Source: Octopus vulgaris (taxonomy: Eukaryota). Taken from it: a DNA stretch of 64,000 nucleotides. Positions 27,201 to 50,614 of this stretch are shown here, one piece after another. Where the stretch lies: assembly GCA_951406725.2 (NCBI GenBank), contig OX597838.1, positions 3,224,001 through 3,288,000 of the forward strand, given 5' to 3'. The stretch's first letter is position 1. Each line of letters opens with the position of its first letter. The position numbers were made by a program, and so were the translations under genes. The notes beneath the pieces are model-generated. The model was not told the origin of the DNA. It saw only the letters and a list, made by a program, of their open reading frames with translations, and made no database searches.

Positions 27201-30200
27201 ATCACACGCCTAACAAAACACAAGGTGCGTAATATTTGATTGAATTTAGATTTATCTAAATCTATCTAGTGGACATGGCAGATTTAATTATTTGCCCGGT
27301 AGATTATCTTAGATCTTCTACTTGTTTCAGTCATTTGACTGCGGCCATGATGGGGCAGCGCCTTGTAGAATCTAAATCGAATGTATCGACCCCCAGTACT
27401 TGTTTTCTATAAGCTTGGTACTTATTCTATCGGTCTCTTTTGCTGAACCGCTAAGTTATGGGGACATAAACACGCCACCACCAGTTGTCAAACAGTGGTG
27501 GGGACGAATACAGACACAAACACATTGATATATATATATATATATACACGATGGGCTACTTTCAGCGTCCGCCTACCAAGTCCACTTACAAGGCTTTGGT
27601 TGGCCTGAGGCTATAGTAGAAAACATTTGCCCAAGGTCCCACACAGTGGGACTGAACCCTGAACGATGTGGTTAGGAAGCAAGTTTCTTACCACACAGCT
27701 GCTATGTCTGTGTCTATAAAGATTAACATCCCCATGCTGGGAATCGAACCCAGACTGCCTGGGTGAAAGTCAGGTATCCTAACCACTGGACCGACAAAAA
27801 ATGATGAATAACCTTAGTCAATTTTTCAAACCTTATAATGCGGAACGCTTTCCGTCCTGACCTTATTCTCCGCAAGATCTCCTCCCCCATGTCTCAGTGC
27901 ATACTCACCTCTTGTCCAAGGTAGGCATATTCCTTCACCTCTATTTCCTCGACTTTTTAATGGTGATATTTTAACGAGCTCCTGATGTCCAGCTCCATCA
28001 GCATGGTCTGTAACTGGTCTGGAGTCTCCCCGATGATTGTCAATGAAATAGAAATAAAAGTTTAAAATTTATTCTTTCTCTTTGGGGGTAAAGACGATGT
28101 AGTATAGTGACCAGCTTCATGTATTGCTATTGTTTAACTCCCGGTCAGCTCTGATCAAAGAAGGCCTATGATGAAAACGATTCCAACTGTGGCCATCTTG
28201 TCTTTTTCAAAGAGTTGGTGAATTAAGCAGGATTGAGTTCTGATATATGTTTGTGCATTTAGATAAAGAAAGAATGAGAAAACCAGGTTGGATTAAATGC
28301 GATGATTTATTCAATTTACCAAAAAGCATTGGAGTGGCTGTGTGGTAAGTAGCTTGCTTACCAACCACATGGCTCTGGGTTCAGTCCCACTGTGTGGCAC
28401 CTTGGGCAAGTGTCTGCTCCTATAGCCTCGGGACGACCAAAGCCTTGTGAGTGGATTTGGTAGACAGGAACCTCGTCGTGTATATGTGTATGTGTGTGTG
28501 CATTTGTGTATCTGTGTTTGTCCCTCCAACATCGCATGACAACTGATGCTGGTATGTTTACGTCCCTGTAACTTAGCGGTTCGGCAAAAGAGACTGATAG
28601 AATAAGTACTAAGCTAACAAAGAATAAGTCCTGGGGTCGATTTGCTTGACCAAAGGTGGTGCTCCAGCATGGCTGCAGTCAAATGACTGAAACAAGTAAA
28701 AGAGTAACATTGTTGGAATACAACTGTCAGAAAATATACTTAATGGCATCTCACGCAGTTGATACTTGAACAGGACAGGGAAACAAATAGAAAAGGACAT
28801 ATGTATTAAATGCTACCTGTGAAATAAACTTGATCTCTGCTGGGATCCGAACTTGACTGTGCAAACCCACCTCACTAAAGAATAGCGGGAAGATTCCTCC
28901 TTATAAAGCTGATGGTGGGCTCCAGTGAACAAACACAAATTTGCTCACATTTGGCTGGTCTTTCACATGATGGGGATGGATAGCCCATGTAGAGCTAGGA
29001 CTCAGCTATCACATGGCCACTTGTAGAAAGCATAGTGTATGAGCCGATATTTGGGTAATTAAAGGTAGACAAACGTAGGGTATAAGCTGATATTTTTGAG
29101 CATGGTTGTTGCCAGAACCACCTGACTGGCCCTCGTGCAGTGGGCAGCATGTAAAAGCACCCACTACACTCTTGGAGTGGTTGGCGTTAGGAAGGGCATC
29201 CAGCTGTAGAAACTCTGCCAGATCAGATTGGAGCCTGGTGCAGCCATCTGGTTCGCCAGTCCTCAGTCAAACCGTCCACCCCATGCCAGCATGGAAAGCA
29301 GACGTTAAACGACATTGATGATGATGATGATTTTTCATGTTGCATTATCCGTTTAGAATCTGTCCTTTTATTTCATCTCACCACAGCACTCTAACATCTA
29401 ACACCATTAACTTCATGGCCACCACTGATGATAGGCCAATATTTCAGTTTTTGTTATGGACATTTTTTAATTTTTGTCTTTCCAGTAAAGAATCGTGACA
29501 ATGTCGTCTATTCACGCTTACAACAGAACATCAGTGATGATGATGACAGTGAAGATCAAATCATTTTCAACAAAGACCTGAACATCACTCCAGCTTCTCG
29601 GAATGGTGTTAAGAAGTTCAGTAATAATGTCATAGAGTTGGACAATTTACCAGGCAGCAAGCTGAAGCGACGTGACCCCCACCGAGCTGGCCAGTCATCA
29701 TGCTGTCGTATCACAAAAAGGGCCGCAATAGTTTTATTCGTAATCCTTGTCATCACCATTTTTGTCGTTGCCATCTTGCATTATAAAAGTTCCTCCCAGC
29801 ATTCTCCTTGCCAGACAACATCAAAGGAGTGGAATTTAAGTTTTGGCAACAATGGTAAGGACGTTTTAAACATACCTTTGTCTTTCAAATATGTTTTTTA
29901 GATATTGGGTCAGTGGTGATTTTGGATATATTGTCTCAGTCACATCAGTATCGTTACAGTCATATTCTTTGTGTCACAGTTGTGCTGATGCATTGTGTCA
30001 CAGTCATGTCGAGATATTGTGTCATAGTCATGTTGATATATTGTGTCACAGTTTATGGTGATACATTGTGTTTGTGTCACAGTTTATGGTAATACATTGT
30101 GTCACAGTTTATGGTGATACATTGTGTCACAGTCATTGTGTTTGTGTCAGTTTATGGTGATACATTGTGTTACAGTCATTGTGTTTGTGTCACAGTTTAT

Positions 30201-32057
30201 GGTGATACATTGTGTCACAGTCGTTGTGTTTGTGTCAGTTTATGGTGATACATTGTGTTACAGTCATTGTGTTTGTGTCACAGTTTATGGTGATACATTG
30301 TGTCACAGTCGTTGTGTTTGTGTCAGTTTATGGTAATACATTGTGTCACAGTCATTGTGTTTGTGTCACAGTTTATGGTGATACATTGTGTTACAGTCAT
30401 TGTGTTTGTGTCACAGTTTATGGTGATACATTGTGTCACAGTCGTTGTGCTTGTGTCACAGTCATGTCAATACATTGTGTGACAGTCATATTGATTGTGC
30501 CACAGTCATAAAAGAATCATCCATAACTTGCAGTAAGCAACATTTATTAAACGTTATTACTGTTATTTCTTTATTTTCTGCAAACAAAATGCACAAAAAA
30601 GCTACACGTTTGCATTATGTTATATATACAATAATAATAAAGGACGTTACCGTATACGTTTTCACAAACCAAGGGCGTTATATAGACCTCCTTGACTCAA
30701 GTTAGAGAAGGGGTGCGTATTATACACAAGGTTTAGGTTTTTCAGAGGTACAGCCCCCGTATTATACTCGAGGGCGGACTATACTCGAGGATTTTTGGTA
30801 CTCATCATCTCGTGATCTCTAAAACATCTATTGTCTTAATCAAACATTCACCACTGACTCTCCATTCTTTTCTCAACAATATTTTGACCATTGTAATTAT
30901 ATACCAACCACTGATATGCTTGTCTGTTGAGGCATTCATTGACCAATGGTCATTTTTTATGTATCATTTTAGTTATTCACCTTTCATTATTCCCAAGTAT
31001 CTTAATTTAGTAGCCTACATGCCTCTTGACCACACTGGTCATTTTGCTATATATTGTTTCTTCCACTCCACCCAATTAACCACTGGTCATTCTTGTGTAC
31101 TCATTATTTTAACCAGTCAGTGATTCTTGCATCCGGCTACTCGATATGGACAATGATGGCCAACTGGACATTCTCCTTAGTTTGGCCGCACCAGATTACT
31201 ACCATCATTATCACTCCAGCATGGACACAGATAACCAACAACCAGTAAATGAATTCTGTAACGATACAGGTGAGAATTGAAACTTTCTATAACAATTTAA
31301 CACTACAAGTACTGACATTTCTTTCTTCCTACAAGGAACATAGCGGTCATTTTTGACCAACATTGAAAATCTTTATTTAATGCAATTGATTTTAAATATA
31401 AGCTAATGTAGTTAATAAAGGATTTGAAAATACAGCCTTTTAGCATTTATTTATGTACCAAAAAATATACACACACATATATATGAAATGATACTCATGA
31501 TTGCATGTTCAATACAGTCATAGAAATTAGAAAGTAAAAGGCAAAAATGGTCATAAATGACCGTTCAGTACTTGTGGTGTTAAGTTTCTTTAATATTCAG
31601 TTCTATATTGAAGAGATGAGGAATTATGTACACTATTTACACTTGACGGATATTTGTCATCTTGTTTGTTGTTAACACAACGTTTTGGCTGATATACCGT
31701 CCAGCCTCCATCAGGTGTCTTGGGGGAAATTGCAAACCTGGGTTCTCATTCCTAAAGTATTTTTTGATGTTGTTGTTGTTATTATTATTATTATTATTGT
31801 TATTATTTTGAGCCTGTCTAGCATGTGGACGTTAGCCCCCCTTGATATATCCAGCGTTTCATCCCTATAGAGGCCAAAACTAGTTGAAAGGGATTTCTTT
31901 TTTAGTATATTTAGGATGGAAAGACCAACTAGGTCACGTATGTCCGCACTGTCAAAAGTACCCATTGCCATGTCGAAGGAGCCATTTGGGTTGGTGCGTT
32001 TGGTCCAAGTGGACCTCTTACTGAAGAGTAGGGTTTTTCTGATGTGCATGATAAGCC

Positions 32058-32101
<44 letters not shown>

Positions 32102-32960
32102 GCGTCTATATATATATATATATGTAGGATGGGCTTATTTTAATTTCCATATATCAAATCCACTTACAAGGCTTTGGTTGGCCTGAGGCTACAGTAGAAA
32201 ATACTTGCCTAAGGTGCCATGCAGTGGGACTGAACCCAGAACCATGTGGCCAGGAAGCAAATGTCTCATGACACATCCACACCTGCACCAATCATACAGT
32301 TTTCAAATAAAGGACACATTGCACAACCGAGGGGCCAAAACTTAAACATCATTGATCAGTGGCTAGGTTCACTCATTCAGAGTTGGGGGGGCCTAGGGCC
32401 AAAGAACAACAACAACAACATCCACATCAATTTCGTTGTGTCTTCTTTGATTTTGTCAGGACTCTCCTACCCACCTACTGGTCAACTTCTGGCCATACGT
32501 GGCTGTGATGGCAAACAGTTGTGGAAGCACTCCACCAAATCCAGCATCCTCTACATCCACTGTGACCAACTGGATGCCAACCAGGATGGTAAGCACGACT
32601 GCTTGATCAGTGGCTATGATGCCACTCTACAAGCTATCGATCCTCGTAAAGGTAAGTCCTACCATCTACGCATGCACTCTTAACGTTGTTTAACTCTTCA
32701 GCTTCCACATCACTCTGCCGAATGTAATGCTTATTTAGTCAAGATTTCAATGATGTGATTTACTCTTTTAATTGTTTCAGCCATTTGACTGTGGCCATGC
32801 TGGAGCACCGCGCATTTAGTCGAGCAAACCAACCCTAGGACTTATTCTTTGTATGCCTAGTACTTATTCTATCGGTCTCTTTTGCCGAACCGCTAACATT
32901 ACTGGGATGTAAACACACCAGCATCGGTTGTCAAACGATGTTGTGGGGACAAACACAGAC

Positions 32961-33006
<46 letters not shown>

Positions 33007-36000
33007 ATGTATATATATATATATATATATATAATTATTTGAGGGAATATTAATCCTAACTTACAGGGGAAAAAAATTCAATTTAGAAATACTAAATCAA
33101 ATTTCACACAATATAATATATATATATGTAAAAAAATTAGAAAAAGACCACCTTTTATCAATTCAAAATGAACAATTAAAATACACCATCTAGAAAATTA
33201 CATATAATAGAAATATTAAAATTAAAATAACAATAAAATACCAATGATTAAGTGAATTGCAAAAAAATAATAAAAACATATATAATTGGTAGAATAACAA
33301 ATATATATATATATATATATATACGACGGGCTTCTTTCAGTTTCTGTCTATCAAATCCACTCACAAGGCTTTGGTCGACCCGAGGCTATAGTAGAAGACA
33401 CTTGCCCAAGGTGCCACACAGTGGGACTAAACCTGGAACCATGTGGTTGGTGAGCAAGCTACTTACCACACAGCCACTCCTATGCTGTTAATTTTTAGAA
33501 TGACATTGTGGGATAGGTGTGAAAGGCCAGATTTAACCTGTGTGAACATAGAACAGGTAGAATATTTGGGCCAGATATGGCTGGTTTAAACCCTTTAGCA
33601 CCCAGATTACTCTGCCAAATGTAACACAAGTGCTTTTTACATGGCACCAACACCAGTGCTTTTCACTATATGTGAAAAGCCCCGCCTAAAGAATATGGTC
33701 GTAGCTAGAATATCTTTGATAATTAGTCTTGTCAATAAAGTCTGGCCTGAGACGAAACAGCTGTTATTGCCATCACCACTAACAACAGCTATCACAGACT
33801 TTTGAAAGAGCGATTTTAACTACAGTAGGGCTTTGATGTTGAAACCCCTGGCAGCCAGAGCCCAGTTATAGTATGGTGGGTGGTAGCATCAAAGATCTCT
33901 TTGCTTGAAAACAAGCTGGAGATTCTCTTGCTGATGTCCTTAACCAGGTTCCTGAACACTATGGCTGGATGGCAGGAACCTGTGTTAATGTAAAACAGCT
34001 TCTCATTGGGTTTCCTAAAGGACCTATAGGCACCTGATTCCAGGTCCGACCGTTGTCAGGTTGGTCTCTATAGTGACCTTCAGTCCAAGGGAGTTCATGA
34101 TGCTTGTGAGGTCCTTTCTGAGCCTGTCTAGCATGTGGACTTAGCCCCTCTTGATATATCCAGCGCTTCATCCATGTTGTCCTCAGCAATATAGAAATGT
34201 AAATTCTGAACGATTAGGTTGACTAAATGTTGTTTTATCATTGAAGAAAAAGTAATTTGTGTGTATTTATTTCAATTTTTGTTGTGAAGGTCTTGTGATA
34301 TGGTCAGCGAATAGTACATACTTGATTGACCACTGGAATATCTACCAAGCCCTAGTGGTACCTGATGTTGACCATGACAATGTAGATGATGTCCTCATTT
34401 TGCATGCTGGATGTTGTTACTATGGCAGACAAGTAAGTGTTTTTGTTACTATGGAAACTTGCCATGACTTTTCTTGGTGCTTTTGATTGATACTGTGTCA
34501 CTTTTGTTGTTACAGTAAAGTTAATTTATTTTTTAATTAATTGCTTGTATTTAATTTTGTTCATTCTTAACCCTGTCATTGCTGTATTTATCTTGAGATG
34601 CTCTGTGTTTCTTTCAATTACTTTAAATATAACCAAGAATTTAGTAAAATAACTTCGTTATCATTCAGTTAGTGTAAGCAACATAAATTGTGACTAAGGT
34701 TTGGTGGCAGATTTTAATTCAGAACTTAGAAAAACAAGACATTTATACTCAGAGCCAGATCCAGTTTCAGCTGGATTGGTAACAAAAGGGTTAATGAGTG
34801 TCTAGGAGACATATTTGATCTTTTAAAGCATCAATCATGGCCTGTGAGTTTTGTTGTGCTTCCAGGTGACATTTACAATTCTTATCATTGCCTCAGGTTT
34901 CTTAGATACGGTAGATGAGGCATTAAAATTACCCTGAAAAAAATTAACTTGATATAGGACTGATACTCTCTCTAGAGTACAAGTGATACTTATCTCTCAT
35001 TGGCATAATTCAGAGCTAAATAGGGGTCTTTAAATGTACCCAGCATGATCCTAATGTCAGAGCTAAATAGGGGTCCATTAATGTACCCAGCAAAATCTTA
35101 ATGATGATGATGATGATGTATGTCTATTATCTTTCTTATTGCAGCCCCCTGACATCACTGGTCGTTTCCTGCTATTTTCTGGGGCTACAGGACAAGCTGT
35201 AGGCACTTTTGTCGATATTTTCATTATGAAAGGGGCTGTCTATAGAAACCCTGTCCTCTACAAGTCATCAAATAACAAGCTCACTGTCCTCTTCACCAGT
35301 GGTCAGTTGTCTTCATCAGGTAAGTCCAGGGTTTCCAATTCTTTTTTTGTACAGTTTGGTGCTAGATTAAAACCTTCGGCATTTAATCCAGCCATATCAA
35401 ACCCAAATACATTAACCTCTTCCACGGGTTCCCTCAACCGCTTTTTCACACATCTATCTTCATCTAAGCGAAAAATATGTAAACACATAACCTTTGGAAG
35501 AGGTAGACCCAGGAAGACCTGGGATGAGGTAGTGAAGCACGACCTTTGAACATTAGGCTTCACCGAGGCAATGACTAGTGACTGAGACCTTTGGAAATAT
35601 GCTGTGCTTGAGAAAACCAGGCAAGCCAAGTGAGACCATAATCCGTGGACTATGCCAGTGGTGTAACCAGCCCACTTAGGGGTACCTTTTCCTTCATTGG
35701 ACACTAAACTCTGCTTGTGAAGACCTGTTGAGGCAAGTGAAATCAAAATCAAATTCAATGACAGCACCGCATGACTGGCATCCATGCTAGCGGAGCACTA
35801 AGAGCACCATCCGAGCGTGATCGTTGCCAGGGCTGCTGACTGCCTCCCATGCCAGTGGCACGTAAAAAGCACCATTCAAGTGTGATTGACGCCTTACTGG
35901 TACTTGTGCTGGTGGCACATGAAAAAATATTCAAGCGAGGTCATTGCCAGTGCCACTGGACTGGCTCCTGTGCAGGTGGCACGTAAAAAACACCATTTGA

Positions 36001-39000
36001 GCATGGCCGTTGCCAGTACCGCCTCACTGGCCCTCGTGCTGGTGGCACGTAAAAGCACCCATTACACTCTCAAGAGCGGTTGGCATTAGGAAGGGCATCC
36101 AGCTGTAGAAACCATGCCAGATCAGACTGGGCCTGGTGCAGCCTTCCAGCTTGCCAGCCCTGGCCAAACTGTCCAACCCATGTCAGCATGGACAACAGAC
36201 ATTAAATGATGATGATGATGATATATATAAAATTTACATACCTCTATTGTCCTTACTTCCACAGGTCAACTCTATCAGATATACTGGGATGTTTTAAAGA
36301 AGCAGCTGTTGGATCCCAATGTGGTGACTCTATCAAATGCTAAGGCAATCTACGAGTAAGTTCCCTAATATCTTCATCTTTTACTCTTTTACTTGTTTCA
36401 GTCATTTGATTGCGGCCATGCTGGAGCACTGCCTTTAGTCGAGAAAATCAACCCCAGGACTTATTCTTTGTAAGCCCAGTACTTATTCTATTGGTCTGTT
36501 TTTTTCGAACCACTAAGTTACGGGAACGTAAACACACCAGCATCGGTTGTCAAGTGATGTTGGGGGGGACAAACACACACACTCACATATATATATATAC
36601 ATATACACAACGAGGTTCTTTTAGTTCCTGTCTACCAAATCCACTCACAAGGTTTTGGTCGGTCCGTGGCTATAGTAGAAGACACTTGCCCAAGGTGCCA
36701 TGCAGTGGGACTGAACCCGGAACCATGTGGTTGGTTAGCAAGCTACTTACCACACAGCCACTCCTGTGCCTGTGGAGGGAAGGGGGGGTGATTTCTTTAT
36801 TTAAGTGCTATGGCACCGGTCACCACTTGTAAACATGATAATATGTCAAACAGCAACTGACAGAAGTGTGTGTGGGGGGGGGGGCACCTGGATTAAGACT
36901 GAGCCTTGGTTACCTTGAGAATATTCCACTTAGTTGCATGCATCCAGAGGCAGGTTGCCAGTTTCAGAAAAGAGCAATTGATTTCTTGAAGTTCTGTGTT
37001 TGCCCTTCGGCATCAACCCCTGTGTGAGTTGTGGTCTTTTTCCTCTTTCTATCTGCCTCAGAACCACAACCAGTTTCAGAGATTCTAGAAAAGGCTATTA
37101 GCACTGCTTGTCTCCCCACCCTTTGACAGAGCCTTTCAAATCTTAAATTGCTTGTGTCTAGCTCAAATATTGTGCCTTCTTTGTGTTAAAAAATAGCCAG
37201 ATCCAGTCTCTCACGTCTGTCCTGCAATGTCATTCTAAAAATAAACAATCATATCAAAATCTCAAAGCTATGAGAAAATGCTCGATTAATTCAAAACAGT
37301 ATGAATAAATAAGCATTACATTTGACAGAGTAATCTGTCAAGGGCCAAGACATACGGCTTTTATATCTTGATGTAGCCAAGTTATAAGGAGAACAAAAGT
37401 GACCCCGTCATTAATATGCTGGAGGACAAGCCCCAAACTATGTCCTCCCTAATACTACACCCCCTATACAACATGTAACGAGTTCTTTATTTTCATCTTG
37501 TTTCTGCAGGAGTCAGACAAAAGGGATCTTTGTCCCACCGGTCATAGTGGACATCCAAAATAATAGCGTAATGGATATTCTTGTGAGCGCATTTGATGGA
37601 ACCATTGCTCTGGTTGACGGCCAGACATTTACACCCAAGTGGAAAATTAACTTTACTAATTATGAATCATTCAGGTGAGTAATTAATTACAGAGGGCAAA
37701 CATAGTTTTGTTTTCAGTTTTGAAGTAGAAAAAAACTAATTGATTTAAATCTACTGTTCTATGGTGATTCTTGACTGGACTCTAGACATTGTTAAATTGC
37801 CAGTGGCACGTAAAAAGCACCAACCGATTGTTGCCGTTGCCAGCCTCGCCTGGCACCTGTGCCGGTGGCACGTAAAAAGCACCCACTACACTCATGGAGT
37901 GGTTGGCATCAGGAAGGGCATCCAGCTAGCTGTAAAAACACTGCCAGATCAGACTGGTGCCTGGTGCAGCCTCCTGGCTTCCCAGACCCCGGTCCGTCCA
38001 ACCCATGCTAGCATGGAAGACGGACATTAAACGATGATGATGATGATGATGTATACAGAGCTCATTAGTAAAAGTAATCAAAAGTCCATGGCCAGGACAT
38101 AGAATTATGCACCGGAAGTGAATAGTGAATGAGTCATTTTATGAAGGAAAAATGCAAAAAAAACAGGTTGGTGGGCTTCAGGTGTACTGATGATGAATTT
38201 CAGAAAACATGGAAATTTTTAAGGACGTAGTGTCCTGATAACTAACAACTGATGCTGGAAGTTTATTCAAAGCTCTTCAACAAGTTTGAACATGAAAAAA
38301 ATGCTTCCAAAAGTCATGGGTGCTGGCATTGCCTTTTGATCTTGTCAGTGCCACATATACATCACCTGTGCCAGTGTCATGTAGAAGGAACCCGTGCCAG
38401 TGCCACATCAAAAGCACCCAGTGCACTCTGTAAAGCAGCTGGCATTAGAAAGGGTGTCCCGCTGTAGAAACCATGCCAAAACAAACAAATGGAGCCTGGA
38501 TAGCTCTCCAGCCTGGCCAACCCATGCAAGCATGGAAAACAGGCATTAAAGGACGATGATGAGCATGTCCATGAGTGTTGGTCATATGAAATTCAAAAAA
38601 GGTGCCCCAGCTTATTGTTGGAGACATGGTTGTGCAGATGTTGCGTAGATATATTACAAGGGGCAGGTGCTGAAAAGTTCCTGGTTTTGAGGGTATCATG
38701 AAAGGCCTACTTGGAGGCCTGACCTTCCGAGTTCTTTTATGGGCTTAAATAAACTGAAGGACCACTGCAATAAGTGTGTGAATCTGAGAGGGGAATATGA
38801 GCGGCATAAAATCCCAATTAACTGATGCTCCTGTATTTTCTTTTACCCCAAAACCAGGAACTCTTCAGCACTTGCTCATGTTTGGAGATTATTATAATAA
38901 ATTTGGTAGACCTGAAGACAATAAATGCTGTGTCTTGAGTTTGCTGTCTATGATCCCCGCCTCACTACCAGCTCAATAGATCTCAACACTTCTAGTGACA

Positions 39001-39403: not shown

Positions 39404-39468
<65 letters not shown>

Positions 39469-39469
39469 G

Positions 39470-39516
<47 letters not shown>

Positions 39517-42500
39517 GTTGCTACTGCTATTACTACAACTACTGTTACTACTACTGTTGCTGCTACTGCTATTACTACTACCATTGTTGCTACTACTACT
39601 ACTACTACTACTACAGTGTGATAGTATGTCTGTAGCCCATACTGTGAAGGTGTGTAACCCTGTGACACTAGTGGCCTGGGTGTTACATTCACAGTTGCAA
39701 GATCATGATTTCGGTTGTCAGACAGAGCAGAGTGCATCGTGTTCTTGAGCAAAACACTTCACCTCACGTTGTTCTGCAATAATTTCAACCTCTGATATGT
39801 GTCATACCCGTACATGCTGTGCAGCAGAAAGGGATCTTTTCGCTTTGACCGGCAGATTTTAAAAATAATTTCTTTGTAACTAAACACTTTTAAACTTCGT
39901 ATACTGGTAGAATGTGTTTATAAAACATCATTTTCTCTTGGCTTTCTTGAGAAAATTCTGTAGTTTGTAAGATATTTGGTCTTTAATTTCTTAATTTTTG
40001 ACAATTTCAGCCTCCTGGCTCGCCAGTCCTCAGTCAAACCTGACTGGCCCTCGTGCCGGTCGCACGTAAAAGCACCCACTACACTCTCTCAGTGTGGTTG
40101 GCGTTGGGAAGGGCATCCAGTTGTAGAAACTCTGCCAAATCAGATTGGAGCCTGGTTCGCCAGACCTCAGTCAAATCGTCCAACCCATGCTACATGGAAA
40201 GCGGACGTTAAACGATGATGATGATGATTCCATGAAATGTAATGCTTGTATATCCACATTGTTTTTGAAGTAATCGTGTATTGTATTAGCCATGATATTT
40301 TGATGGTGTGATTGCTTATTTTTACAAATGACATTATAAGGTATCTGGCCAGTTTGAACATAAAAACAAATAGAATATTTGGGCTGGATACGACCAATTG
40401 AAATGCTAATGAGTTGACTGACCATACCATTCAGTCTGAGAGTTGCTGAAGCATGGAACAAACTGCCGGCATCGGTTGTTAGTTGTCGGAGCACTGCATC
40501 CTTCAAAACTTCCATGCTTCCTGAGATTCGCCAACACTACACTTGATTTTTTCCCTTCCATACACACGCAAGCATGTATCTGACTCATACACTGTTCACT
40601 TCCCAGACATTTCTACATTACTGCATGTACTTTATATGCACTTTCTGACAAGTTGTGGTGCACCTGAGCACTGTATACAATAATTTCATTATTATTATTA
40701 TTATAATTCTCTTTGCTTCTATATCCCGTCTAGGTGATGGTGATCAGTGGTAAAGATGGAACAGTACTCTGGGAAACGGCCTCATCATTTCCTTCATTCA
40801 CCTCTGACCTCACCTTACAAACAGTCGAACATCAGCGTGACGTTTTTGTATTCAAAACATTTAATCGCGATGGATACGTTCACGTGGACAGCAAAGACCC
40901 AGCCCGTATCATTTCTACAGATTCTGTAAGTTGCCCTTTCTCTTTCTGATATTCCATATGCCCTGAGCAGTCCTCACATAGCAGACAATGATCAAAGGTG
41001 TTCCAACCAGGACCATCTTGTTTTATTCTGTACTAGCAGTATCGTCCGGCGTTGCTCGGGTTTGTAAGGGAAATAACTATATAAGCATTTTTAGAGAGTT
41101 ACTTCCCTTATATAATAGCAAAAAATGCATTAAAAATGGGAAAAAATGATGGTAACTTTTATTTAAGATCGTAGATGCGCGCTAATACCCAGAAGGGCTT
41201 GATATGAATCACGTCTATAAGATACCCGGTTTTGGTTAAACTGCATCGCAAAATGTGGGAGTAGTTAGGAATCTAAATTGTAGGAGACAGACAGCACACA
41301 ACCTCACTTTTATATATAAAGATATCTATAGACTATAGCATTGAGAACAGTCAAAATCAAAATCAAACCAAATTGAGGTCGATCAACATCAGGTGACACG
41401 TAAAAGCAGGTGACACGTAAAAGCACCATCCGTTCGTGGCCGTTTGCCAGCCCTGTCTGGCCCCCGTGTCGGTGGCACGTAAAAGCACCATCCGTTCGTG
41501 TTCGTTGCCAGCCTGGCCTGGCCCCCGTGCCGGTGACACGTAAAAGCACCAATCCGTTCGTGGCCGTTTGCCAGCTCTGTCTGGCCCCCGTGCCGGTGAC
41601 ACGTAAAAGCACCATCCATTCGTGTTCGTTGCCAGCCCTGTCTGGCCCCCGTGTCAGTGGCACGTAAAAGCACCATCCGTTCGTGGCCGTTTGCCAGCTC
41701 TGTCTGGCACCTGTGCGGGTGGCACGTAAAAAGCACCCACTACACTCACGGAGTGGTTGGCATTAGGAAGGGCATCCAGCCGTAGAAACACTGCCAGATC
41801 TGACTGGGCCTGATGAAGCCTTCCAGCTTCACAGACCCCAGTTGAACCGTCCAACCCATGCCAGCATGGAGAACGGACGCTAAATGATGATGATATAGCA
41901 TCTAATGCAGTGGTTCCCAACCTTTTAACTACCAGGCACCCCTTTTATTTGAATGAGTTTTCCCACAGACCCCAGGATATTGAAAGGTCTGTCAGCTTAA
42001 CATGTACACTGGTCCCCTGTACTACCTCAACAGACCACCAGGGGCCCACAGACCACAGGTTGGGAACCACTGGTCTAAGTTGTCCTTCCTCTTTCTAGAC
42101 AATGCTTTGAAGAAAGTATTTGGCTGCCATTCTTAGAAGTTTGAGCGACTGCATAGAGGCTCTCTCCGTCTCCATTTTCTGAACTAATCAAGTGCTCCAC
42201 AGGTGATCAGTCGGCCACAGAACAGGTGCATTAGCTGTGTTTATACTATGTCTGAGGCCCACATTTCACAGTTTGGGCATGTTCTTGTGAGTCATAGGGG
42301 CATGCAATTCAACAGTCTGCACTCTCCTGTCTATTTCTGTCAGTGGTAGTAACACACAAGGGAGCGAGTGACCCCCATGTGAGCAAGTAACCCTCAAGGA
42401 AGCGAGTGACCCCCCAAGGGAGCGAGTGACCCCCAAGGGAGCAAGTGACCCCCAAGGGAGCAAGTGACCCCCAAGGGAGCGAGTGACCCCCAAAGGAGCG

Positions 42501-45500
42501 AGTGACCCCCCAAGGGAGCGAGTGACCCCCAAGGGAGCAAGTGACCCCCAAGGGAGCAAGTGACCCCCCAAGGGAGCGAGTGACCCTCAAGGGAGCGAGT
42601 GACAATGTGGCCTCATTATTTATTATGGCTAGGTTCCAATCCGGGCCGCAGCAACAAAGTCCACCCACCACATTGTTCAGTCCACCATCACTGCCTTTAG
42701 GTCCCGGATACATCCTGGGCCAGTGTCTGCAGTCAAGTAGTCAATGTCAGTGTGACAATGTTTTCCTCTTCTTACATCACCATGAAGAGGATTCCACAGG
42801 ACTAATTTGCTGTCCCTTTATTCTCAATGTCAGGCTGAAGTGATGTTGTTTTTGGTTAGTGACCCCCACTCCTCATTCTCCACCCACCTCCTGAATAAAA
42901 GTAAGGAAACAGACTCTTTGAGTATTGCAAATGTTCTGTCAATCAGTCACTTAATTGCAGTGTAAAGTGGCTGAGTATTCCTAGTCACAGGTGTGGTTGT
43001 GCATTAAGAAGTTTGCTTCCCAACCACTTAGTTCCAGGATCAGTCCCACTGCCTCAAAATCTGCAAAAATATCGTAAATATCATAATTTATCAGATTCAG
43101 AAAATTTTTCATGTAAATTACAATGTCCCCCAATTCGGGGCAGAAGATGAAGTCGCAGAAAAAAAAACATGTTTAAGTTGTGTTTTTAAAGTAATTTCAT
43201 CACAGTCATTTAAAAACTCCTAAAGAAGATGCAGTGAAAACTATTTTATAGCTGATTAGAGCTGTGGCTTAATTAGTTTATGCAGCCGTGAAAAAAAATC
43301 GATAATTCTGTTGCGGCAAAGTTGCAGCTTGCGGCAATGACGTCGTATTAAGCTGTACGTGACAGAAAATATTCAACATTTTTGTTTAATTGTTAAGTGT
43401 TTTTGATTTTAAAAGCAAGATTCGAGCGTGATCGTTACCTGCGTCGCCTTACCAGCACCTGTGCTGGTGGCACGTGAAAAACATTCGAAGCAAGGTCGTT
43501 TCCAGTGCTGCTAGACTGGCTCCTGTGCAGTTGGCACATAAAAGGCACCATCTGAGCGTGGCCATTGCCAGTACCGCCTGACTTGCCCTCGTGTCAGTGG
43601 CACGTAAAAGCACCCGCTACACTCTAGGAGTGGTTGGCGTTAGGAAGGGCATCCAGCTGTAGAAACTCTGCCAGGTCAAGATTGGAGTCTGGTGCGGCCA
43701 TCTGGTTCGCCAGACCTCAGTCAAATCATCCAACCCCTGCTAGCATGGAAAGCAGACATTAAACGATGATGACGATGATTTCACGCCGAGAAAAATGTGC
43801 ATGATAGCCCTTCTGAAGGGATACATGTAGATGTAACATTTTTCCTGAAAATGCCAACAATGTAAGCAGCAAAAAATTAGAAAGAAAATGAGGGCAAAAA
43901 GCACTCATTTTTTCACAATGGAAAATCGTTTCATTGTAGCTGGAATTCCATGACAAAATGTATGTTTGTTAAGCACAACAGCCTGCAGTGCATGCCGCTG
44001 GGCATTAAAAACCAATTGCACAAACCTAGAGGGGCTCTGGGCCCCCTTGAATCGATAAAAAATCACTCTTTTTGCCATAGCAACCACATCTTTATAGCTT
44101 GCGAATTTTAACCACCGCGGGTCTCATCCTCACCACGCATTTAGTATCCCTGCCAATTTTCAGCTCGATCCTAGCCTTGGTTTGGCTGCCTTTAACCATC
44201 AAAGCAAAATGTGCAGACAATTTTCGTCCAAGGACTGTTTTATAGATATAGATAAATAAGTAGAGGTGTTTCCCCACCTACTTTTTCCATTTTCCAATGC
44301 ATTTATGGAGACAGAAGATATTGTTTCAGAGTTCTAAGACTTTATGCCAGCTCTTTTGATGTCCGTTTACAACTTTTCCACATTACCCCCTTCACAAGAC
44401 AGAAACACTCTACCCTGACCATCTTATTTAAGATAAGATCAGTGCCCCACAACCAGTGTGCCGCAGCCCACTGGTGTGCCACAAGATGATGCTAAGTGTG
44501 CCATAAGACAATGCTTGGCGTGCCACAAAACGATGCTTGGTGTGCCACAAGACGATGCTAGGTGTGCCACAAGATGATGCTAGGTGTGCCACAAGACGAT
44601 GCTAGGTGTGCCACAAGACGATGCTAGGTGTGCCACAAGATGATGCTTGGTGTGCCACAAGATGATGCTAGGTGTGCCACAAGATGATGCTAGGTGTGCC
44701 ACAAGATGATGCTTGGTGTGCCACAAGACGATGCTAGGTGTGCCACAAGACGATGCTAGGTGTGCCACAAGACGATGCTAGGTGTTCCACAGGATGATGC
44801 TAGGTGTGCCACAAGACGATACTAGGTGTGCCACAAAACGATGCTACGTTTTCCACAGTGTAACCTGAATATAATTTTCTTTCCCTATACTTTTAATTAT
44901 ATTTGTAGCTCAGGTGTGCCGCCAAATTTTTGAAAGGAATATAAATGTACCACAAGTGCAAAAAGGTTGCGGGGCACTGGACCGTATTATTTAATGTAAC
45001 CTCTTTTTAAAACAGTAGACAGAGTTGAGTTTAGGGCTACTATTTCTAGCTCTTTCGATGGTTCCATGTTACTAATGCCAATTAATAATCCATCTTTCTC
45101 TCTCTCTTTTGTAGGTGGTTGAACATAGATCTGATCCAGATTCCAGTAAGTGTTTGTTTACTTATAGTTCTGTGTGTGTGTGTGTGTGTTTGACTGTTAC
45201 ACTGTTGACTAAAACTTGGCAGATGCCAGCGCCGCCTGACTGGTGTCCGTGTCGGTAACACATAAAAGCACCAACTGATCATAGCCGTTTGCCAGCAGCT
45301 CCTGCCCCTGTGCCGGAGGCACGTAAAAAACACCCACTACACTCACGGAGTGGTTGGCGTTAGGAAGGGCATTCAGCTGTAGAAACACTGCCAAATCAGA
45401 CTGGAGCCTGGTGCAGCCTCCATGGCTTACCAGACCCCGGTCGAACCGTCCAACCCATGCCAGCATGGAAAACGGACGTTAAATGATGATGATGATGATA

Positions 45501-48500
45501 TATATGTTGATTTGTATAAAGGATACACACACAGACATTTTGCCGTTTATATATATAGAGATTGTTGGTTTCTTATTATTATTTAAGACGTAAAAGAAAA
45601 AAGGTTTTATTATCATTAACATTGTAAGAATTTTGAAAAACTACATTTACAATGTACTAAAGAATTTCTTAAAAAATTGGATAGCAATTTGATAATAAAG
45701 ATGAATTACAAATTTGAATAACTTTTCTTTTTTGATGAATTGAGCGAACATCTGCTGGAAGCAGAAGAACAGCTTAAGGATTTTTAGAAATTGGGAAGTA
45801 AACTAAAAAAAACAACCTTAACCCTTTCGTTACCATATTTCTGTTGAGATGCTCTTTTTCTTTCAATTATTTTAAATATAACAAAGAATTTAGTAAAATA
45901 ACTTAGTTACTATTAAGCTAGTGTTAGTAACATAAATTGTGACTAAGGTTTGGTGGAAGATTTTAATTCGAAACTTAAGAAAACAAGACATTCGTACTAC
46001 AGAGCCAGAGGCGGTTTCAGCCGGGTTGGTAATGAAAGGGTTAAGTAATTGCCCTTGAAATTGTAGATCACACACCAAAGTAGCACCTTACAGAATGTAC
46101 TTGAGCTTGTGATCCATCCATCATTTAATGTCTGCTTTTCAAAACTTGTGTGGGCCAGAAGGAAATTTGTCGAGGTGGTTTTTCTACAGCCGGGTGCCTT
46201 TTCCAGTTGCCAACCTTCACCTGTTTCCAAGTAAGGTAATATTTCCATATGGCCATGAAAGATTGAAAATAAGCAACATTAATTTTGTGATATTGTTCAA
46301 GGTTGTAAACAACCATCACTTTTGCGGCGCTTGCTTACAACTTTCTCCTGAAGTCAAGACAAGAGCATACACACACACACACAATGGGCTTCTTTCAGTT
46401 TCTGTTTACCAAATGCACTCATTGAGTCTGGAACCTAGTGGTTGGGAAGCAAATTTTTTAAAGAAGTTCTTTAACCCTTTGGTGTCCAGATTTCTCTATT
46501 AAATCTAATACTTTTTCACTCAAATTGTTTTGAATTAATCATGCATTATGTTATAGCTTTGAGGTTTCAATGATATAATTGTTTATTTTTAGAATGTCAA
46601 TGTAGGTTAGGTGTGAGAGGCTGGATATGGCCAGTTTGAATATAAAACATGTAGAATATTTGGGCGGATATGGCCGGTTTAAACACTAAAGGGTTAATAA
46701 ATCTGCCTGGTTATTTATTTATTTATTTTTTCATTTATTTTAGCCTATTTACCTCAAAATCATCCAGGTTTCTTCCCATCTCCGGCTGGCTACTTTTTAA
46801 TTTGTACATTAACTTCACAATCAGCAATCACCGAAGAAGTTTTCATCATGGACCGAAGCAACTTGGACAAACCCATTCAATTGGCAGAAAATAAATATTC
46901 CTGTGAGAATTTTTTAGATTCGTTCATTGATGTTGTTGTTATTATTGTTAAGCGTTTCGCATTCAGATTTCTTTGCTTATTTATTCATTGTATTATCTTG
47001 TAGCTTTGAAGTTACGATAATGTGATTGTTTATTTTTAGAATGACATTGTGGGTTACGTGTGAGAAGCTGGATATGGCCAGCTTGAACATGTATATATTT
47101 CCTAAGCACAGGTGCATGGCTCAGTGGTTAGAGCATCGGGTTCACAGTCATGAGGTAGTGAGTTCAATTCCTGGGCTGGGCTGTGTGTTGTGTTCTTGAG
47201 CAAGACACTTTATTCCATGTTGCTCCAGTTAACTCAGCTGTAGAAACATTGGCACGCCGGGCGAAATGCTTAGCAGTATTTCGTCTACCATTACGTTCTG
47301 AGGTCAAATTCCAGTGAGGTCGACTTTGCCTTTCATCCTTTCGGGGTCAATGAATTAAGTACCAGTTATGGACTGGTGTCGATGTAATCGACTTAATCCG
47401 TTTGTCTGTCCTTGTTTGTCCCCTCTATGTTTAGCCCCTTGTGGGCAATAAAGAAATAAGAAATGAGTTGTGATGTCACTGGTGCCAAGCTGTATCAGCC
47501 CCTTTGCCTTTCCCTTGGATAACATCAGTCGTGTGGAGAGGAAAGGCTGGCATGCATTGGTGACTTCTAGTCTTCCATAAACAGCCTTGCCCAGACTTGT
47601 GCCTCAGAGGGGAACGTTTTTGGTGCAATCCCATGGTCATGCATGACCGAAGGGGATCTTTACTCCTTTACTCCTAACCGCATGGTTTCAGATTCAGTCC
47701 CACTGCATGGTACCTTGGGCAAGTGTTTCCTACAAAGGGATTTGTTGTGTGAGGCTGAAACAATACAAGAAAACACCAAGTCATCTACAAAAGGAAAAGG
47801 AAAACAAAGCAAAATAAGGTTGCAGTTTTACTTTGTATTTCTATGTTTCGGGGTTATGACTCCTCTTCAGGACATCTGGAAAAAGCAAGGAATGGAAAAG
47901 CCATTGCTCAGATGTGTGGGGGAGGAAGGAGGAAAGTGATGTATGCAGACTGGTGTTGCTAGGGCAACCAGTCTGTTTCATGTAGTTCCTTTTTCTTGTT
48001 AATGGCTGGTCTGAATATATTTATAAGGAGGGTATCCATGATTCTGAGGTTGAATGGCCCTGGTGGATACCTTAAAACCCTGGGTCAAGATAGAAACTGT
48101 GAAATTTCGGGTTGGGTAGGAACCTAGCCAATTACATCAACTCCACTGCTCAACTAGTTCTTATTTAAGTAATCCTGGAAGGACGAAGAGCAAAAGTCAG
48201 TCTCAGTAGAATTTGAACTCACAACTTTAAAAAAACCTGAAGAAATGCAATGTACTAATGATTCTGCAGCCGTTGCCATTATATATAGAATGGAGGGAAA
48301 CATCACTTGGTTCTTAATAAATATAAATTCTGCACCAGGTATTGAGTACTACTTGTCTTGTTTGCAAAACAAAAAAAATGTGTGTGTACAGGGCTCAATA
48401 TGATTATCTAGAACCTTTGAAGATATAGCTGCAGCATGGCCGTGATCCGGTGACTGAAACCTCTAAAATCCTCAGTAATGATGACTCCTAACATATGTGG

Positions 48501-50614
48501 TACCTCTATACAGCCAAGTGTACTGGGCCCTCTAGACTATTGTGTGTTTGGACACTGTAAGAATAAGAACTGCCATCATTTAGGCCAGTTGGCTAACGAC
48601 TTAGTTGATTATGGGCGTGGTGGTGGTGTTCATCCTTAATGTCAGCTGCAGCTACAGGCAGTCTGTATGTTACGAAAATAAATTTTATCTAATTTGAAAT
48701 TTCATTTTCCCTCTTTTGCTAGATTTGCCATCCCCATCGAAGGCAGATAGTCTGCGTGCTGTTGCTAAACCCTTTGGTCGTGGCACAGGTGAGTACTGCA
48801 ATGGGTGGGTGTCACTGGTCTTTGATGTTGTGTTACTACTGTTGCTTAACCAATCATACTGCATGGTACATGTGACAGTATGGTACATGTGACAGTATGG
48901 TTCATGTGACAGCACGGGACATGTGACAGCATGGGACATGTGACAGCATGGTTCATGTGCCAGCATGGTTCATGTAACAGCATGGGACATGTGACAATAT
49001 GGGATATGTGACAGCATGGGATGTGTGACAATATGGGACATGTGACAGCATGGTTCATGTGACAATATGGGACATGTGACAGCATGGTTCATGTGACAGT
49101 ATGGTACATATAACAGCATGGTACATGTGACAGTATGGTTCATGTGACAGTATGGTTCATGTGACAGCATGGTTCATGTGACAGCATCGGACATGTGACA
49201 GCATGGTTCATGTAACAGCATGGGACATGTGACAATATGGGATATGTGACAGCATGGGATGTGTGACAATATGGGACATGTGACAGCATGGTTCATGTGA
49301 CAATATGGGACATGTGACAGCATGGTTCATGTGACAGTATGGTACATATAACAGCATGGTACATGTGACAGTATGGTACATATAACAGCATGGTACATGT
49401 GACAGTATGGTACATATAACAGCATGGTACATGTGACAGTATGGTTCATGTGACAGCATGGTACATGTGGCTGCGTTGATCTGTTTATTATGTGTGTGGG
49501 TGGGTATATATGTTTATATGCACATGTATGTAAGCATAGAGATATGAAAATAAACAGATCAACATACAGATGGATAGGTATTGATTAGCATGCAAGTGGC
49601 TGAGCACTCCACAGACACGTGCACCCTTAACATAGTACTCAGGGAGATTCAGCGTGACGCAGAGTGTGACAAGTCTGGCCCTTTGAAATACAGGTACAAC
49701 AGAAACAGGAAGAAAGAGTGAGAGAAAGTTGTGGTAAAAGAGTACAGCAGGGTTCACCCCCCCACACACACAATATATATATATACACATACAATATATG
49801 TATGCATACATACAATATATAGATAGATACATACATGCAAACACAACAGGCTTCTTTCTGTTTCCATGTACCAGATGTAATAACAAGGCTTTGGTTGGCC
49901 CACAGTTATAGTAGAAGACCATTTCCCAAGGTGCCATACAATGAGACTGAACCCATAGCCATATGTTTAGTAAGCAAACTTCTTACCACACAGCCATACC
50001 AGTGCAAATTTTTAAAATGCTGGATCTGGCCCCCTTTTAAGATGGTAGTTAACGCCCTATATTTCAGTGCAGCTTTCCAACCCAAACAATTTGCCACCAC
50101 TGGCTCAAATGTGTCCCCCTACCCTTAAAGATAAACTATAAATGTTCGTGATCTGAGAATTGCTATAATCTTATTGATGATGTTGTTGTGAATTTTTTAC
50201 TTGACAGGAGCCATTGGTGATGTGGATGGAGATAATCAACCGGATTATATAAGCTTGACCAATCTGGCTATAGAGGTTCCGGATTCAAAACCTGGCTGCC
50301 CAATCTTCTGGCAGAATATGACCCTGTACAAGAAGACACTGATGCCATCCAGTCACTCCAGAAAGTCGGTACCCATTAAGATGTTTACATCACTGGTGAA
50401 TGAGGCGCAAGGGGGCGAACAGCATGAAAAGGGCCTTGAATCAACGCACTTTGTACCCCAACGGGAACAAGTATGGAACGAGTATTTAGGTAGTAAACAG
50501 ACTGGCATCTACCGTCGCCAACATCTGAGTGACGGAGGAAACACAATGTCGAGACGTAGCAGAGTTTTGTATTATTTAGTTGTTCTCTTTACATTATTGG
50601 TTGTTCTGCTTTGA
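21216..50614 (+). CDS. FAM234 (FAM234A/ITFG3, FAM234B)-like type II membrane protein with FG-GAP-like beta-propeller. join(21216-21231,29486-29854,31117-31269,32460-32651,34290-34432,35145-35319,36265-36355,37510-37674,39069-39162,40734-40925,45115-45145,46744-46902,48723-48788,50208-50614), about 750 aa
   Basis: Spliced by hand: every intron is GT..AG with matching phase, total 2253 nt with no internal stop. Cytosolic N-tail with YSRL and an acidic cluster, one TM helix (AAIVLFVILVITIFVVAILHY), repeated DxD/NxDG loops (DMDNDGQLD, DANQDGKHD, DVDHDNVDD, YFNDDAYLD, DVDGDNQPD) and G.DG..LW blade motifs. Family assignment is from recalled architecture, not a database search. Confidence 0.85.
23315..23960 (-). 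mobile_element. Hero/R2-like non-LTR retrotransposon 3' fragment (restriction-like endonuclease)
   Basis: KPDIFMW...LMIPHEDN...RKFDRY..L...GW...IEVGCRGF...KASHWIWLKR matches the PD-(D/E)xK RLE pattern of Hero-clade elements. Confidence 0.85.
27729..27794 (-). pseudogene. tRNA-Glu(TTC)-derived pseudogene
   Basis: Reverse complement ggtccagtggttaggatacctgacTTTCAcccaggcagtctgggttcgattcccagcatgggga. D, anticodon and T arms are recognisable; the 5' acceptor strand is lost. Confidence 0.7.
29486..29854 (+). CDS. FAM234-like exon 2 (cytosolic tail, TM helix, start of lumenal domain)
   Basis: tttttgtctttccag|TAAAG...AACAATG|gtaagg; KNRDNVVYSRLQQNISDDDDSED...CCRITKRAAIVLFVILVITIFVVAILHY...EWNLSFGNN. 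Confidence 0.9.
29940..30510. repeat. Minisatellite, about 44-46 bp compound unit (tgtgtcacagtttatggtgatacat / cagtcattgtgttt)
   Basis: Direct inspection; intron 2. Confidence 0.9.
31117..31269 (+). CDS. FAM234-like exon 3
   Basis: ttattttaaccag|TCAGT...GATACAG|gtgaga; VSDSCIRLLDMDNDGQLDILLSLAAPDYYHHYHSSMDTDNQQPVNEFCNDT. This frame is not in the ORF track. Confidence 0.9.
31809..32061 (-). mobile_element. Penelope-like element (Naiad-type) reverse transcriptase fragment
   Basis: IMHIRKTLLF...W.K...SFDMAMGTFDSADIRDLVGLSIL...FGLYRDETL matches the FDVTMGSYDGAEVCELVGL..GLYRDDGL pattern. Confidence 0.8.
32460..32651 (+). CDS. FAM234-like exon 4
   Basis: ttttgtcag|GACTC...CGTAAAG|gtaagt; GLSYPPTGQLLAIRGCDGKQLWKH...CDQLDANQDGKHDCLISGYDATLQAIDPRK. 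Confidence 0.92.
33830..34190 (-). mobile_element. Penelope-like element RT thumb fragment
   Basis: DLESGAYRSFRKPNEKLFYINTGSCHPAIVFRNLVKDISKRISSL. Shares about 55 nt with the fragment at 31809. Confidence 0.75.
34290..34432 (+). CDS. FAM234-like exon 5
   Basis: gttgtgaag|GTCTT...AGACAA|gtaagt; GLVIWSANSTYLIDHWNIYQALVVPDVDHDNVDDVLILHAGCCYYGRQ. Confidence 0.92.
35145..35319 (+). CDS. FAM234-like exon 6
   Basis: ctttcttattgcag|CCCCCT...TCATCAG|gtaagt; PPDITGRFLLFSGATGQAVGTFVD...TVLFTSGQLSSS. Confidence 0.92.
35465..36222 (+). mobile_element. RTE-clade LINE 3' fragment (ORF end, repeat-containing 3' UTR, (GAT)n tail); truncated copies at 29100-29330, 37795-38050, 40015-40228, 41350-41893, 43418-43779, 45210-45500, 54550-54850, 62070-62312
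   Basis: GRGRPRKTWDEVVKHDL*TLGFTEAMTSD*DLWKYAV, then ggcacgtaaaagcacc units, ggaagggcatccagc and (GAT)n. Confidence 0.82.
36265..36355 (+). CDS. FAM234-like exon 7
   Basis: cttacttccacag|GTCAA...TACGA|gtaagt; GQLYQIYWDVLKKQLLDPNVVTLSNAKAIY. Confidence 0.88.
37510..37674 (+). CDS. FAM234-like exon 8
   Basis: tgtttctgcag|GAGTC...TTCAG|gtgagt; ESQTKGIFVPPVIVDIQNNSVMDILVSAFDGTIALVDGQTFTPKWKINFTNYESF. Confidence 0.92.
39069..39162 (+). CDS. FAM234-like exon 9
   Basis: tttctctcag|TATTC...TCCATG|gtaagt; SIPAPGYFNDDAYLDFMLHLNFGTWPLYLYSM. Confidence 0.92.
39325..39615. repeat. (CTA)n trinucleotide array
   Basis: Direct inspection. Confidence 0.95.
40430..40703 (+). mobile_element. CR1-like LINE 3' end
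   Basis: FSLRVAEAWNKLPASVVSCRSTASFK..* then 3' UTR and (ATT)n. The tail also occurs at about 21613-21710(-). Confidence 0.8.
40734..40925 (+). CDS. FAM234-like exon 10
   Basis: cccgtctag|GTGATG...GATTCT|gtaagt; VMVISGKDGTVLWETASSFPSFTSDLTLQTVEHQRDVFVFK...ISTDS. Confidence 0.92.
41033..41322 (-). mobile_element. Non-autonomous Helitron H2, internally deleted
   Basis: Reverse complement of both termini of 19638-20037. Confidence 0.85.
41908..42072. mobile_element. hAT-Charlie-like MITE
   Basis: TIRs cagtggttcccaacc / ggttgggaaccactg; degenerate 8-bp flanks atctaatg / gtctaagt. Confidence 0.85.
42358..42603. repeat. 20-21 bp GC-rich minisatellite (agggagc[ga]agtgaccccca)n
   Basis: About 12 units, intron 10. 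Confidence 0.92.
44440..44979. mobile_element. hAT-like MITE with internal 21-bp tandem array
   Basis: TIRs cagtgccccacaacc / ggttgcggggcactg; (ggtgtgccacaaga[ct]gatgct[at])n at about 44473-44850. Confidence 0.85.
45115..45145 (+). CDS. FAM234-like exon 11 (31-nt microexon, VVEHRSDPDS)
   Basis: Long pyrimidine tract tctctctctcttttgtag|GTGGTT...TTCCA|gtaagt. Bridges phase 0 (exon 10) to phase 1 (exon 12). Confidence 0.75.
45822..46040. mobile_element. piggyBac-like MITE P1; copies at 25060-25261, 34571-34790, 58158-58378, 60750-61350
   Basis: TTAA|CCCTTTC...GAAAGGG|TTAA. Confidence 0.85.
46475..46693. mobile_element. piggyBac-like MITE P2; partial copies at about 23150-23310, 25345-25550, 33490-33625
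   Basis: TTAA|CCCTTT..TAAAGGG|TTAA. Confidence 0.8.
46744..46902 (+). CDS. FAM234-like exon 12
   Basis: atttattttag|CCTAT...TATTCCT|gtgaga; TYLPQNHPGFFPSPAGYFLICTLTSQSAITEEVFIMDRSNLDKPIQLAENKYS. Confidence 0.8.
48723..48788 (+). CDS. FAM234-like exon 13
   Basis: ccctcttttgctag|ATTTG...GGCACAG|gtgagt; YLPSPSKADSLRAVAKPFGRGT. Confidence 0.82.
48862..49470. repeat. 17-bp minisatellite (atgg[tg][ta]catgtgacag[ct])n with a 238-bp higher-order duplication
   Basis: The variant pattern starting near 48960 recurs 238 bp (14 units) later. Confidence 0.92.
50208..50614 (+). CDS. FAM234-like exon 14 (terminal: last FG-GAP-like loop and hydrophobic C-tail)
   Basis: ttttacttgacag|GAGCC; GAIGDVDGDNQPDYISL...WNEYLGSKQTGIY...SDGGNTMSRRSRVLYYLVVLFTLLVVLL*. 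Confidence 0.9.

Follow-up and report, generated by a model that had tools for sequence, protein, structure and literature searches.

A FAM234-family gene in the Octopus vulgaris window

The window analysed here is a stretch of 64,000 nucleotides of the Octopus vulgaris genome (assembly GCA_951406725.2, contig OX597838.1, positions 3,224,001 to 3,288,000 of the forward strand). Splice-junction testing in the window joined 14 GT-AG exons into one open frame of 750 amino acids with a single stop (Table 1). The range 29486 to 50614, to which a preliminary description had assigned the gene, includes the tail and the stop and lacks the start: exons 2 to 14 alone are 13 exons without a start codon, and 29486 marks exon 2 because the ATG, supplied by exon 1, sits in a small exon further upstream. 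The encoded protein differs from the RefSeq protein XP_029651276.1 of O. sinensis (P0003) at 19 of 750 positions, none of which lies in the C-terminal tail; P0003, with 731 of 750 residues identical, was the stand-in for all database work.

Table 1. Positions of the exons and protein features of the FAM234-family gene in the window
Feature	Position	Strand	Remark
Exon 1, coding part, start codon, aa 1-6	21216..21231	+	GT donor follows; N-terminus matches the database models P0005/P0009
Exon 2: cytosolic tail, type II helix, first propeller strand	29486..29854	+	
YxxL motif and acidic cluster, aa 14-33	29509..29568	+	conserved
N-terminal type II transmembrane helix, aa 85-103	29722..29778	+	KD 3.43; sequence poorly conserved
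Exons 3-13 together: body of the predicted 8-bladed FG-GAP propeller	31117..48788	+	
Exon 3, propeller body	31117-31269	+	
Exon 4, propeller body	32460-32651	+	
Exon 5, propeller body	34290-34432	+	
Exon 6, propeller body	35145-35319	+	
Positions 232, 294, 322, 345, 346 (exons 4-6)	32460..35319	+	family R, R, E, G, E replaced in 5/5 cephalopod proteins
Exon 7, propeller body	36265-36355	+	
Exon 8, propeller body	37510-37674	+	
Exon 9, propeller body	39069-39162	+	
Exon 10, propeller body	40734-40925	+	
Exon 11, 31-nt microexon	45115-45145	+	in low-confidence insertion of the propeller
Exon 12, propeller body	46744-46902	+	
Exon 13, propeller body	48723-48788	+	
Exon 14: last blade, C-terminal arm, terminal motif, tail, stop	50208..50614	+	
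Family terminal W-x-x-Y-x-G motif, aa 705-717	50474..50512	+	most homologues end just beyond
Cephalopod-specific 33-aa tail, aa 718-750	50513..50611	+	stop at 50612-50614
S723-D724-G725-G726, candidate omega region (S723 or D724)	50528..50539	+	invariant in 6/6 aligned orthologues
16-residue hydrophobic run up to the stop, no cytosolic residues beyond	50564..50611	+	helix 731-749 in model

By its sequence, the gene product is a member of the FAM234 family (FAM234A/FAM234B, ITFG3/KIAA1467): Pfam matches P0003 to the FAM234A/B propeller family PF23727 with 118.9 bits (cut-off 26.4, E-value 2.7e-34). An AlphaFold2 model based on a 139-row alignment (pLDDT 80.8) places a helix at residues 79-107, followed by a strand-rich body; by structure, residues 118-662 match 8-bladed propellers best (top match 6tjg, Z-score 27.6, rmsd 2.5, 314 residues aligned). 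A sequence search of the PDB retrieved only distant PQQ-type, BamB and integrin propellers, and Foldseek only generic propellers. The ectodomain is predicted to be a compact, closed 8-bladed propeller on the lumenal side of the membrane.

The N-terminal anchor, proposed earlier as a type II helix at approximately residues 85-105, is recovered at residues 85-103, the best 19-residue Kyte-Doolittle window. In all five orthologues compared, three to six Lys or Arg residues occur in the 15 positions before this helix and one to two after it, and 7-12 N-glycosylation sequons follow it towards the C-terminus; hydropathy, charge bias and sequons agree, and they fit an N-in/C-out orientation of the chain. 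The cytosolic part in front of the helix comprises 84 amino acids with one YxxL motif, which together with the acidic cluster nearby presumably constitutes a cytosolic sorting signal. Human FAM234B is given as single-pass in an annotation that PMC7721111 takes from UniProt.

Several other features were observed around the coding exons. Minisatellite arrays, recognized by eye, occupy intronic segments at 29950-30500, 42360-42600, 44480-44850 and 48860-49470, and intron 1 holds a partial tRNA match on the minus strand (27737-27792, Rfam, 38.2 bits) that is probably a tRNA-derived SINE. Upstream of exon 1, at 20690-20760, there are two CCGGAAG boxes and one ACGTCA site, a combination that we take to resemble a housekeeping promoter. 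Within ~1 kb downstream of the stop, at 50900-51700, inverted pairs of dispersed repeats (170-200 nt, ~82% complementary) could form double-stranded RNA within a long 3' UTR. The interval 56200-57700, from which the last exon of the database model P0005 (57366) comes, has stop-riddled frames that resemble a decayed hAT-type transposase, and no Pfam match.

Layout, distribution and conservation of the C-terminal tail

The near-invariant residues of the family's terminal motif, W705, Y708 and G710, are present in the octopus protein, and the tail follows directly. The letters at 50513-50611, including small residues, a spacer and 16 hydrophobic residues, are exactly those of the preliminary description. 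Counted from S723, 27 residues remain to the C-terminus, and V735-L750 form the uncharged run of 16 residues, with a mean hydropathy of 2.94 (2.8-3.0 across orthologues). In the AlphaFold2 model, the C-terminal arm is ordered up to approximately residue 720 (pLDDT 93-96 for residues 701-720) and is connected to the terminal helix by a low-confidence linker at 723-729 (pLDDT <50). A complex prediction of the tail with the helix-plus-propeller part, run without alignments, gave a score of 0.00, which speaks neither for nor against binding. Two invariant Arg-Arg pairs within 50513-50557 flank a lumenal peptide of 10-11 residues, a layout that we would regard as propeptide-like.

The tail is present in the window protein, in the proteins of O. 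sinensis, O. bimaculoides and Argonauta hians, in an octopus-like fragment (P0194) and in two Logan clusters. The latter probably represent squid or cuttlefish, judging from the tree alone, in which they branch outside Octopus and Argonauta; as their contigs are shorter than 4 kb, the sequences are likely spliced transcripts. Among the 15 of 17 members listed for the larger cluster, 12 full-length ones (783 amino acids) carry the tail and three stop upstream of the last exon; all three members of the smaller cluster have it. None of 168 other homologues carries this tail, as assessed by the hydropathy of the last 30 residues and the distance from the terminal motif; this set may include an unrecognised cephalopod paralogue, and its only named vertebrate member is a fish protein (FAM234B). 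The hydropathy of the last 30 residues reaches at most 1.66 among the 168, compared to 2.7-2.9 in tail-bearing proteins (Kyte-Doolittle values). The terminal motif lies within the last 120 residues in 104 of these homologues, with a median of 17 residues from its Trp to the end (up to 24 in 91 proteins, 25-35 in eight and more in five). A freshwater-mussel protein (P0018) and its close relative P0036 have an extension of their own beyond the motif, comprising 18 residues with two cysteines.

A FastTree phylogeny built from 61 selected rows unites the five full-length proteins that carry the tail in a single clade with a support of 100. The clade is placed within a group of molluscan proteins, of which those from gastropods and bivalves stop at the terminal motif. 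This nesting among tail-less molluscan proteins indicates a gain on the cephalopod branch, which may be that of coleoids or of all cephalopods, there being no Nautilus protein among the named matches. As the preliminary description had surmised, the tail belongs to one lineage; it is no general trait of the family. The same description had left it to an alignment whether the tail is conserved or confined to one species: it is conserved, and it is a property of the clade and not of the species. Because orthologues keep 29-33 of its 33 residues, the tail is more than a chance extension of the frame. A full-text search outside the subscription journals found nothing on cephalopod FAM234, and among the matches listed for FAM234A/FAM234B no title or abstract opening mentions such a tail.

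Tail searches in other proteins, Pfam and a protein atlas yielded no donor gene: seven of 12 candidates matched, all of them FAM234 orthologues, and there was no Pfam family and no usable atlas match, all of which are weak negatives. T makes up 60% of the hydrophobic part of the tail and 49% of the UTR behind it; it accounts for 27% of the coding sequence and for 42% of the first helix. The frame beyond the stop also reads hydrophobic. Recruitment of the tail from 3' UTR appears to be a plausible, weakly supported origin on these grounds.

The degree of constraint on the tail is the most surprising result. Relative to P0003, all 33 tail residues are identical in O. bimaculoides and 29 in Argonauta and in both Logan proteins, whereas the latter three retain 368-404 of 750 residues over the whole protein (about 50%) and the distant orthologues only four to five of 19 residues in the first helix. 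On a five-taxon tree, the tail underwent eight changes in 33 sites, or 0.24 per site. The corresponding rate is 1.11 in the whole protein, 0.62 in the terminal motif, 2.0 in the first helix and 0.36 in the YxxL/acidic region (residues 11-35). None of the 685 other 33-residue windows is as low as the tail, making the tail the most conserved window of the protein. The preliminary description was silent on this point, as well as on a loss of Arg and Glu residues that occurred on the same branch.

This loss concerns the propeller. Among 71 columns that are conserved to at least 75% in 134 other homologues, seven are absent from all five cephalopod proteins (R232, G274, R294, a Pro near 319, E322, G345 and E346). 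All seven are kept in the Haliotis, Patella, Pecten and Mytilus proteins and in the bacterial-type homologue P0032, and likewise in 74 of the 134 homologues, while 12 of the 134, including fish FAM234B, keep at most two (one of them is gapped at all seven). The conservation of the Arg and Glu residues from bacteria to molluscs suggests a ligand or catalytic site, and R232, R294, E322, G345 and E346 may be considered a candidate active site of FAM234; by the same sequence comparison, the cephalopod propeller is likely a pseudo-enzyme. Loss of the conserved residues also occurred in other lineages; in cephalopods it coincides with the gain of the tail.

Possible roles of the tail

A hallmark of GPI signals, as summarized in PMC2571997, PMC10491789 and 10.1101/838680, is a positional pattern: approximately ten unstructured polar residues precede a small omega residue, omega+1 is not Pro, omega+2 is small again, and a hydrophilic spacer of 8-12 residues leads to 15-20 hydrophobic residues that extend to the end of the chain. 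According to the same sources, little conservation is to be expected in such signals, and their hydrophobicity has to fall into a narrow range. In all six aligned orthologues, the triplets S723(D,G) and D724(G,G) comply with the small-residue and no-Pro rule, and a spacer of 8-9 residues is followed by 16 hydrophobic ones up to the stop, with nothing beyond. The GPI-signal layout described initially from the octopus sequence thus extends, from omega to the stop, to six of six orthologues. The stretch between the ordered arm and omega is shorter, with 5-6 polar residues as opposed to the approximately ten flexible ones of the published pattern. An approximate hydropathy sum of the tail, calculated by three variants that do not exactly reproduce the published formula, amounts to 10-29 and overlaps with the values of human GPI signals (11-44 among 120 of 130 rows; 23.5 for BST2). 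Basic residues are positioned on the lumenal side of the tail helix, which, by the positive-inside rule, is unusual for an ordinary second helix.

The tail probably provides a second membrane anchor, be it a GPI moiety or a helix. As the best explanation, with chances that we consider about even, the cephalopod FAM234 protein would combine its N-terminal helix with a GPI anchor, which likely takes the place of the tail upon cleavage behind S723 or D724; the two anchors would probably reside in the same membrane. Arguments against GPI are the short flexible stretch before omega, the strongly hydrophobic 16-residue core, given the narrow range needed, and the lack of the tail in both O. vulgaris database models (P0005 and P0009). 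Moreover, extreme conservation is odd for a signal that is cleaved off, and a retained helix fits it at least as well; neither anchor model accounts for the constraint fully. Sequence-specific information has been described for individual GPI signals, namely for CEA (PMC2064130) and in swaps between CD59 and PrP (PMC9520029).

The tail may instead remain uncleaved, forming a short second transmembrane helix that ends flush with the cytosolic face; in such a two-helix hairpin with a large lumenal domain, it could bind a conserved membrane partner or retain the protein in the ER or Golgi. We regard this as a genuine possibility, if not the probable one: the near-invariance of the tail next to a drifting first helix would be explained directly, and both the hydrophobicity of the core and the short linker before omega are in its favour. 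However, 16 residues are short for a stable transmembrane helix. A GPI signal accounts better for the invariant S-D-G-G, which stands exactly where omega would be expected, for the arginines on the lumenal side and for a chain that ends without any cytosolic residues. Even the tail of tetherin has been argued to be a second helix, by a work in the reference list of PMC9599465. A tetherin-style tether with one anchor in each of two membranes, which the preliminary description had envisaged, finds little to build on here and is improbable. Helix-plus-GPI topology is indeed rare and used by tetherin (PMC3989765 and PMC3235769), but bridging is unlikely because the compact, closed propeller offers no coiled-coil rod and its linkers are short (in the model, about 12 residues on the side of the first helix and 6-7 before omega). 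In addition, purifying constraint on the tail is strong, which sets it apart from the bat tetherins, presented as diverse in PMC9599465.

Three further readings carry still lower probabilities. That the tail lies outside the main O. vulgaris product, the gene ending via another last exon, is the least probable of all. Its basis is P0005, which splices from a donor at 50471 to the exon at 57366 and also skips exon 3, and P0009, which runs into intron 11. The donor at 50471 scores 4.7, though, compared to 7.9-13.0 for the 13 used donors (from which the scoring matrix was built, so that it is biased towards them), and splicing from it would remove the near-invariant residues of the terminal motif; in RefSeq, the models of two Octopus species have the tail as their C-terminus, and so have the 12 full-length Logan members. 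P0005 and P0009 may be mispredictions or minor isoforms. It is also quite improbable that the tail is a processing module, in which the Arg-Arg pairs at 718-719 and 731-732 are convertase sites, cleavage at which sheds the propeller from its C-terminal anchor or frees the peptide of 10-11 residues. Dibasic pairs are typical of convertase sites, the six aligned orthologues share both pairs and most of the intervening residues without change, and the segment is lumenal; yet basic residues beyond the terminal motif are common in tail-less homologues as well, and the conserved hydrophobic run would be left unexplained. Finally, it may be the nucleotide sequence that is conserved, as part of an RNA-editing duplex, of a regulatory element or of an overlapping gene, the peptide being a tolerated read-through of old 3' UTR. 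According to PMC6881472, a paper that also disputes the cause, the sequence around editing sites shared among coleoids is conserved, and three of the differences observed in the tail (N/D, M/V and V/I) can come from A-G changes. This reading is nevertheless very improbable: folding revealed no local RNA structure in the tail region (z = -0.17, -0.01, -0.75 and -1.11), there is neither an Rfam match nor a convincing overlapping reading frame at the tail, and its best long-range duplex ranks only eighth in strength among ten coding segments tested. Furthermore, the single indel leaves the reading frame intact, and the substitutions are mostly conservative. A search of metagenomes for DNA of orthologues yielded three weak loci out of 323 candidate stretches and nothing from cephalopods, and one supplement of the squid editing study PMC4384741 contains no row for FAM234, KIAA1467 or ITFG3.

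If the tail is a GPI signal, the protein could operate in the following manner: The first helix would direct the chain into the ER as a type II protein, and the GPI transamidase would then process the tail and place GPI at 723/724. The short linkers to both anchors would fix the propeller close to one bilayer. Its GPI may bring the protein into ordered lipid domains, and sorting and endocytosis may be driven by the cytosolic YxxL/acidic motif. The propeller would have lost an ancestral enzyme or ligand site and would now serve as a binding surface. The tail itself may be conserved through tuning of the signal, either for efficiency or because the type of anchor is specified. An even more specific scenario, which we put forward tentatively and consider rather unlikely as a whole, is that in cephalopods a molluscan enzyme-like propeller became a catalytically dead surface receptor and that, on the same branch, 3' UTR became a sequence-tuned GPI signal. 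The signal would then be the most constrained part of the protein because its exact sequence sets a switch between GPI and helix or the anchor type.

Whichever anchor applies, the tail-bearing FAM234 is a real, clade-wide addition to a known family with an unexplained degree of constraint. Its clean gain on one branch, with tail-less orthologues in the sister groups, constitutes a natural pair for studying the effect of a second anchor. A GPI-type signal more conserved than the fold it serves runs counter to the expected degeneracy of such signals; if the tail is a retained helix, it marks a conserved membrane partner in cephalopods. The replaced Arg/Glu set, in turn, suggests where the FAM234 family, so far uncharacterised, may have an active site.

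Comparison with known systems

The cephalopod protein shares with FAM234A and FAM234B the PF23727 match, the type II helix, the cytosolic Tyr/acidic motif, the FG-GAP propeller and the terminal W-x-x-Y-x-G; it differs from other FAM234 proteins by the additional hydrophobic tail of 33 residues and the replacement of the conserved R/R/E/E. If the tail is retained, the topology would be that of proteins with two helices and a large ectodomain, such as CD36, P2X and ENTPD1. These have cytosolic C-terminal residues, which the octopus tail lacks.

BST2/tetherin (CD317) likewise has an N-terminal helix, a cytosolic Tyr motif and a C-terminal GPI-type signal, the latter being assigned to the octopus protein by pattern only. 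The two have no sequence or fold relation: the octopus ectodomain is a propeller, whereas tetherin has a disulfide-linked coiled-coil rod, by which it bridges membranes (PMC3235769), and the octopus cytosolic tail of 84 amino acids with one YxxL contrasts with the 21 amino acids and the dual-tyrosine motif given for tetherin in PMC3235769 and PMC9599465. Short linkers and strong conservation of the tail also set the octopus protein apart. The octopus protein is not a relative of tetherin. Helix-plus-GPI proteins are rare, and the review PMC3989765 lists four others (a form of the prion protein, ponticulin, Sm23 and NcSRS2); no propeller is on its list.

An analogy with respect to the position of the signal is found in bacterial FAM234-like propellers with a T9SS C-terminal sorting domain, in which a sorting signal directly follows the same terminal motif. 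Among four bacterial-type homologues tested, the domain scores above the cut-off in P0174 (34.3 versus 23 bits), below it in P0134 and P0173, and is absent from the fourth. The bacterial signal is unrelated to the cephalopod tail and was gained independently; its occurrence behind the same motif indicates that this position tolerates an added targeting module.
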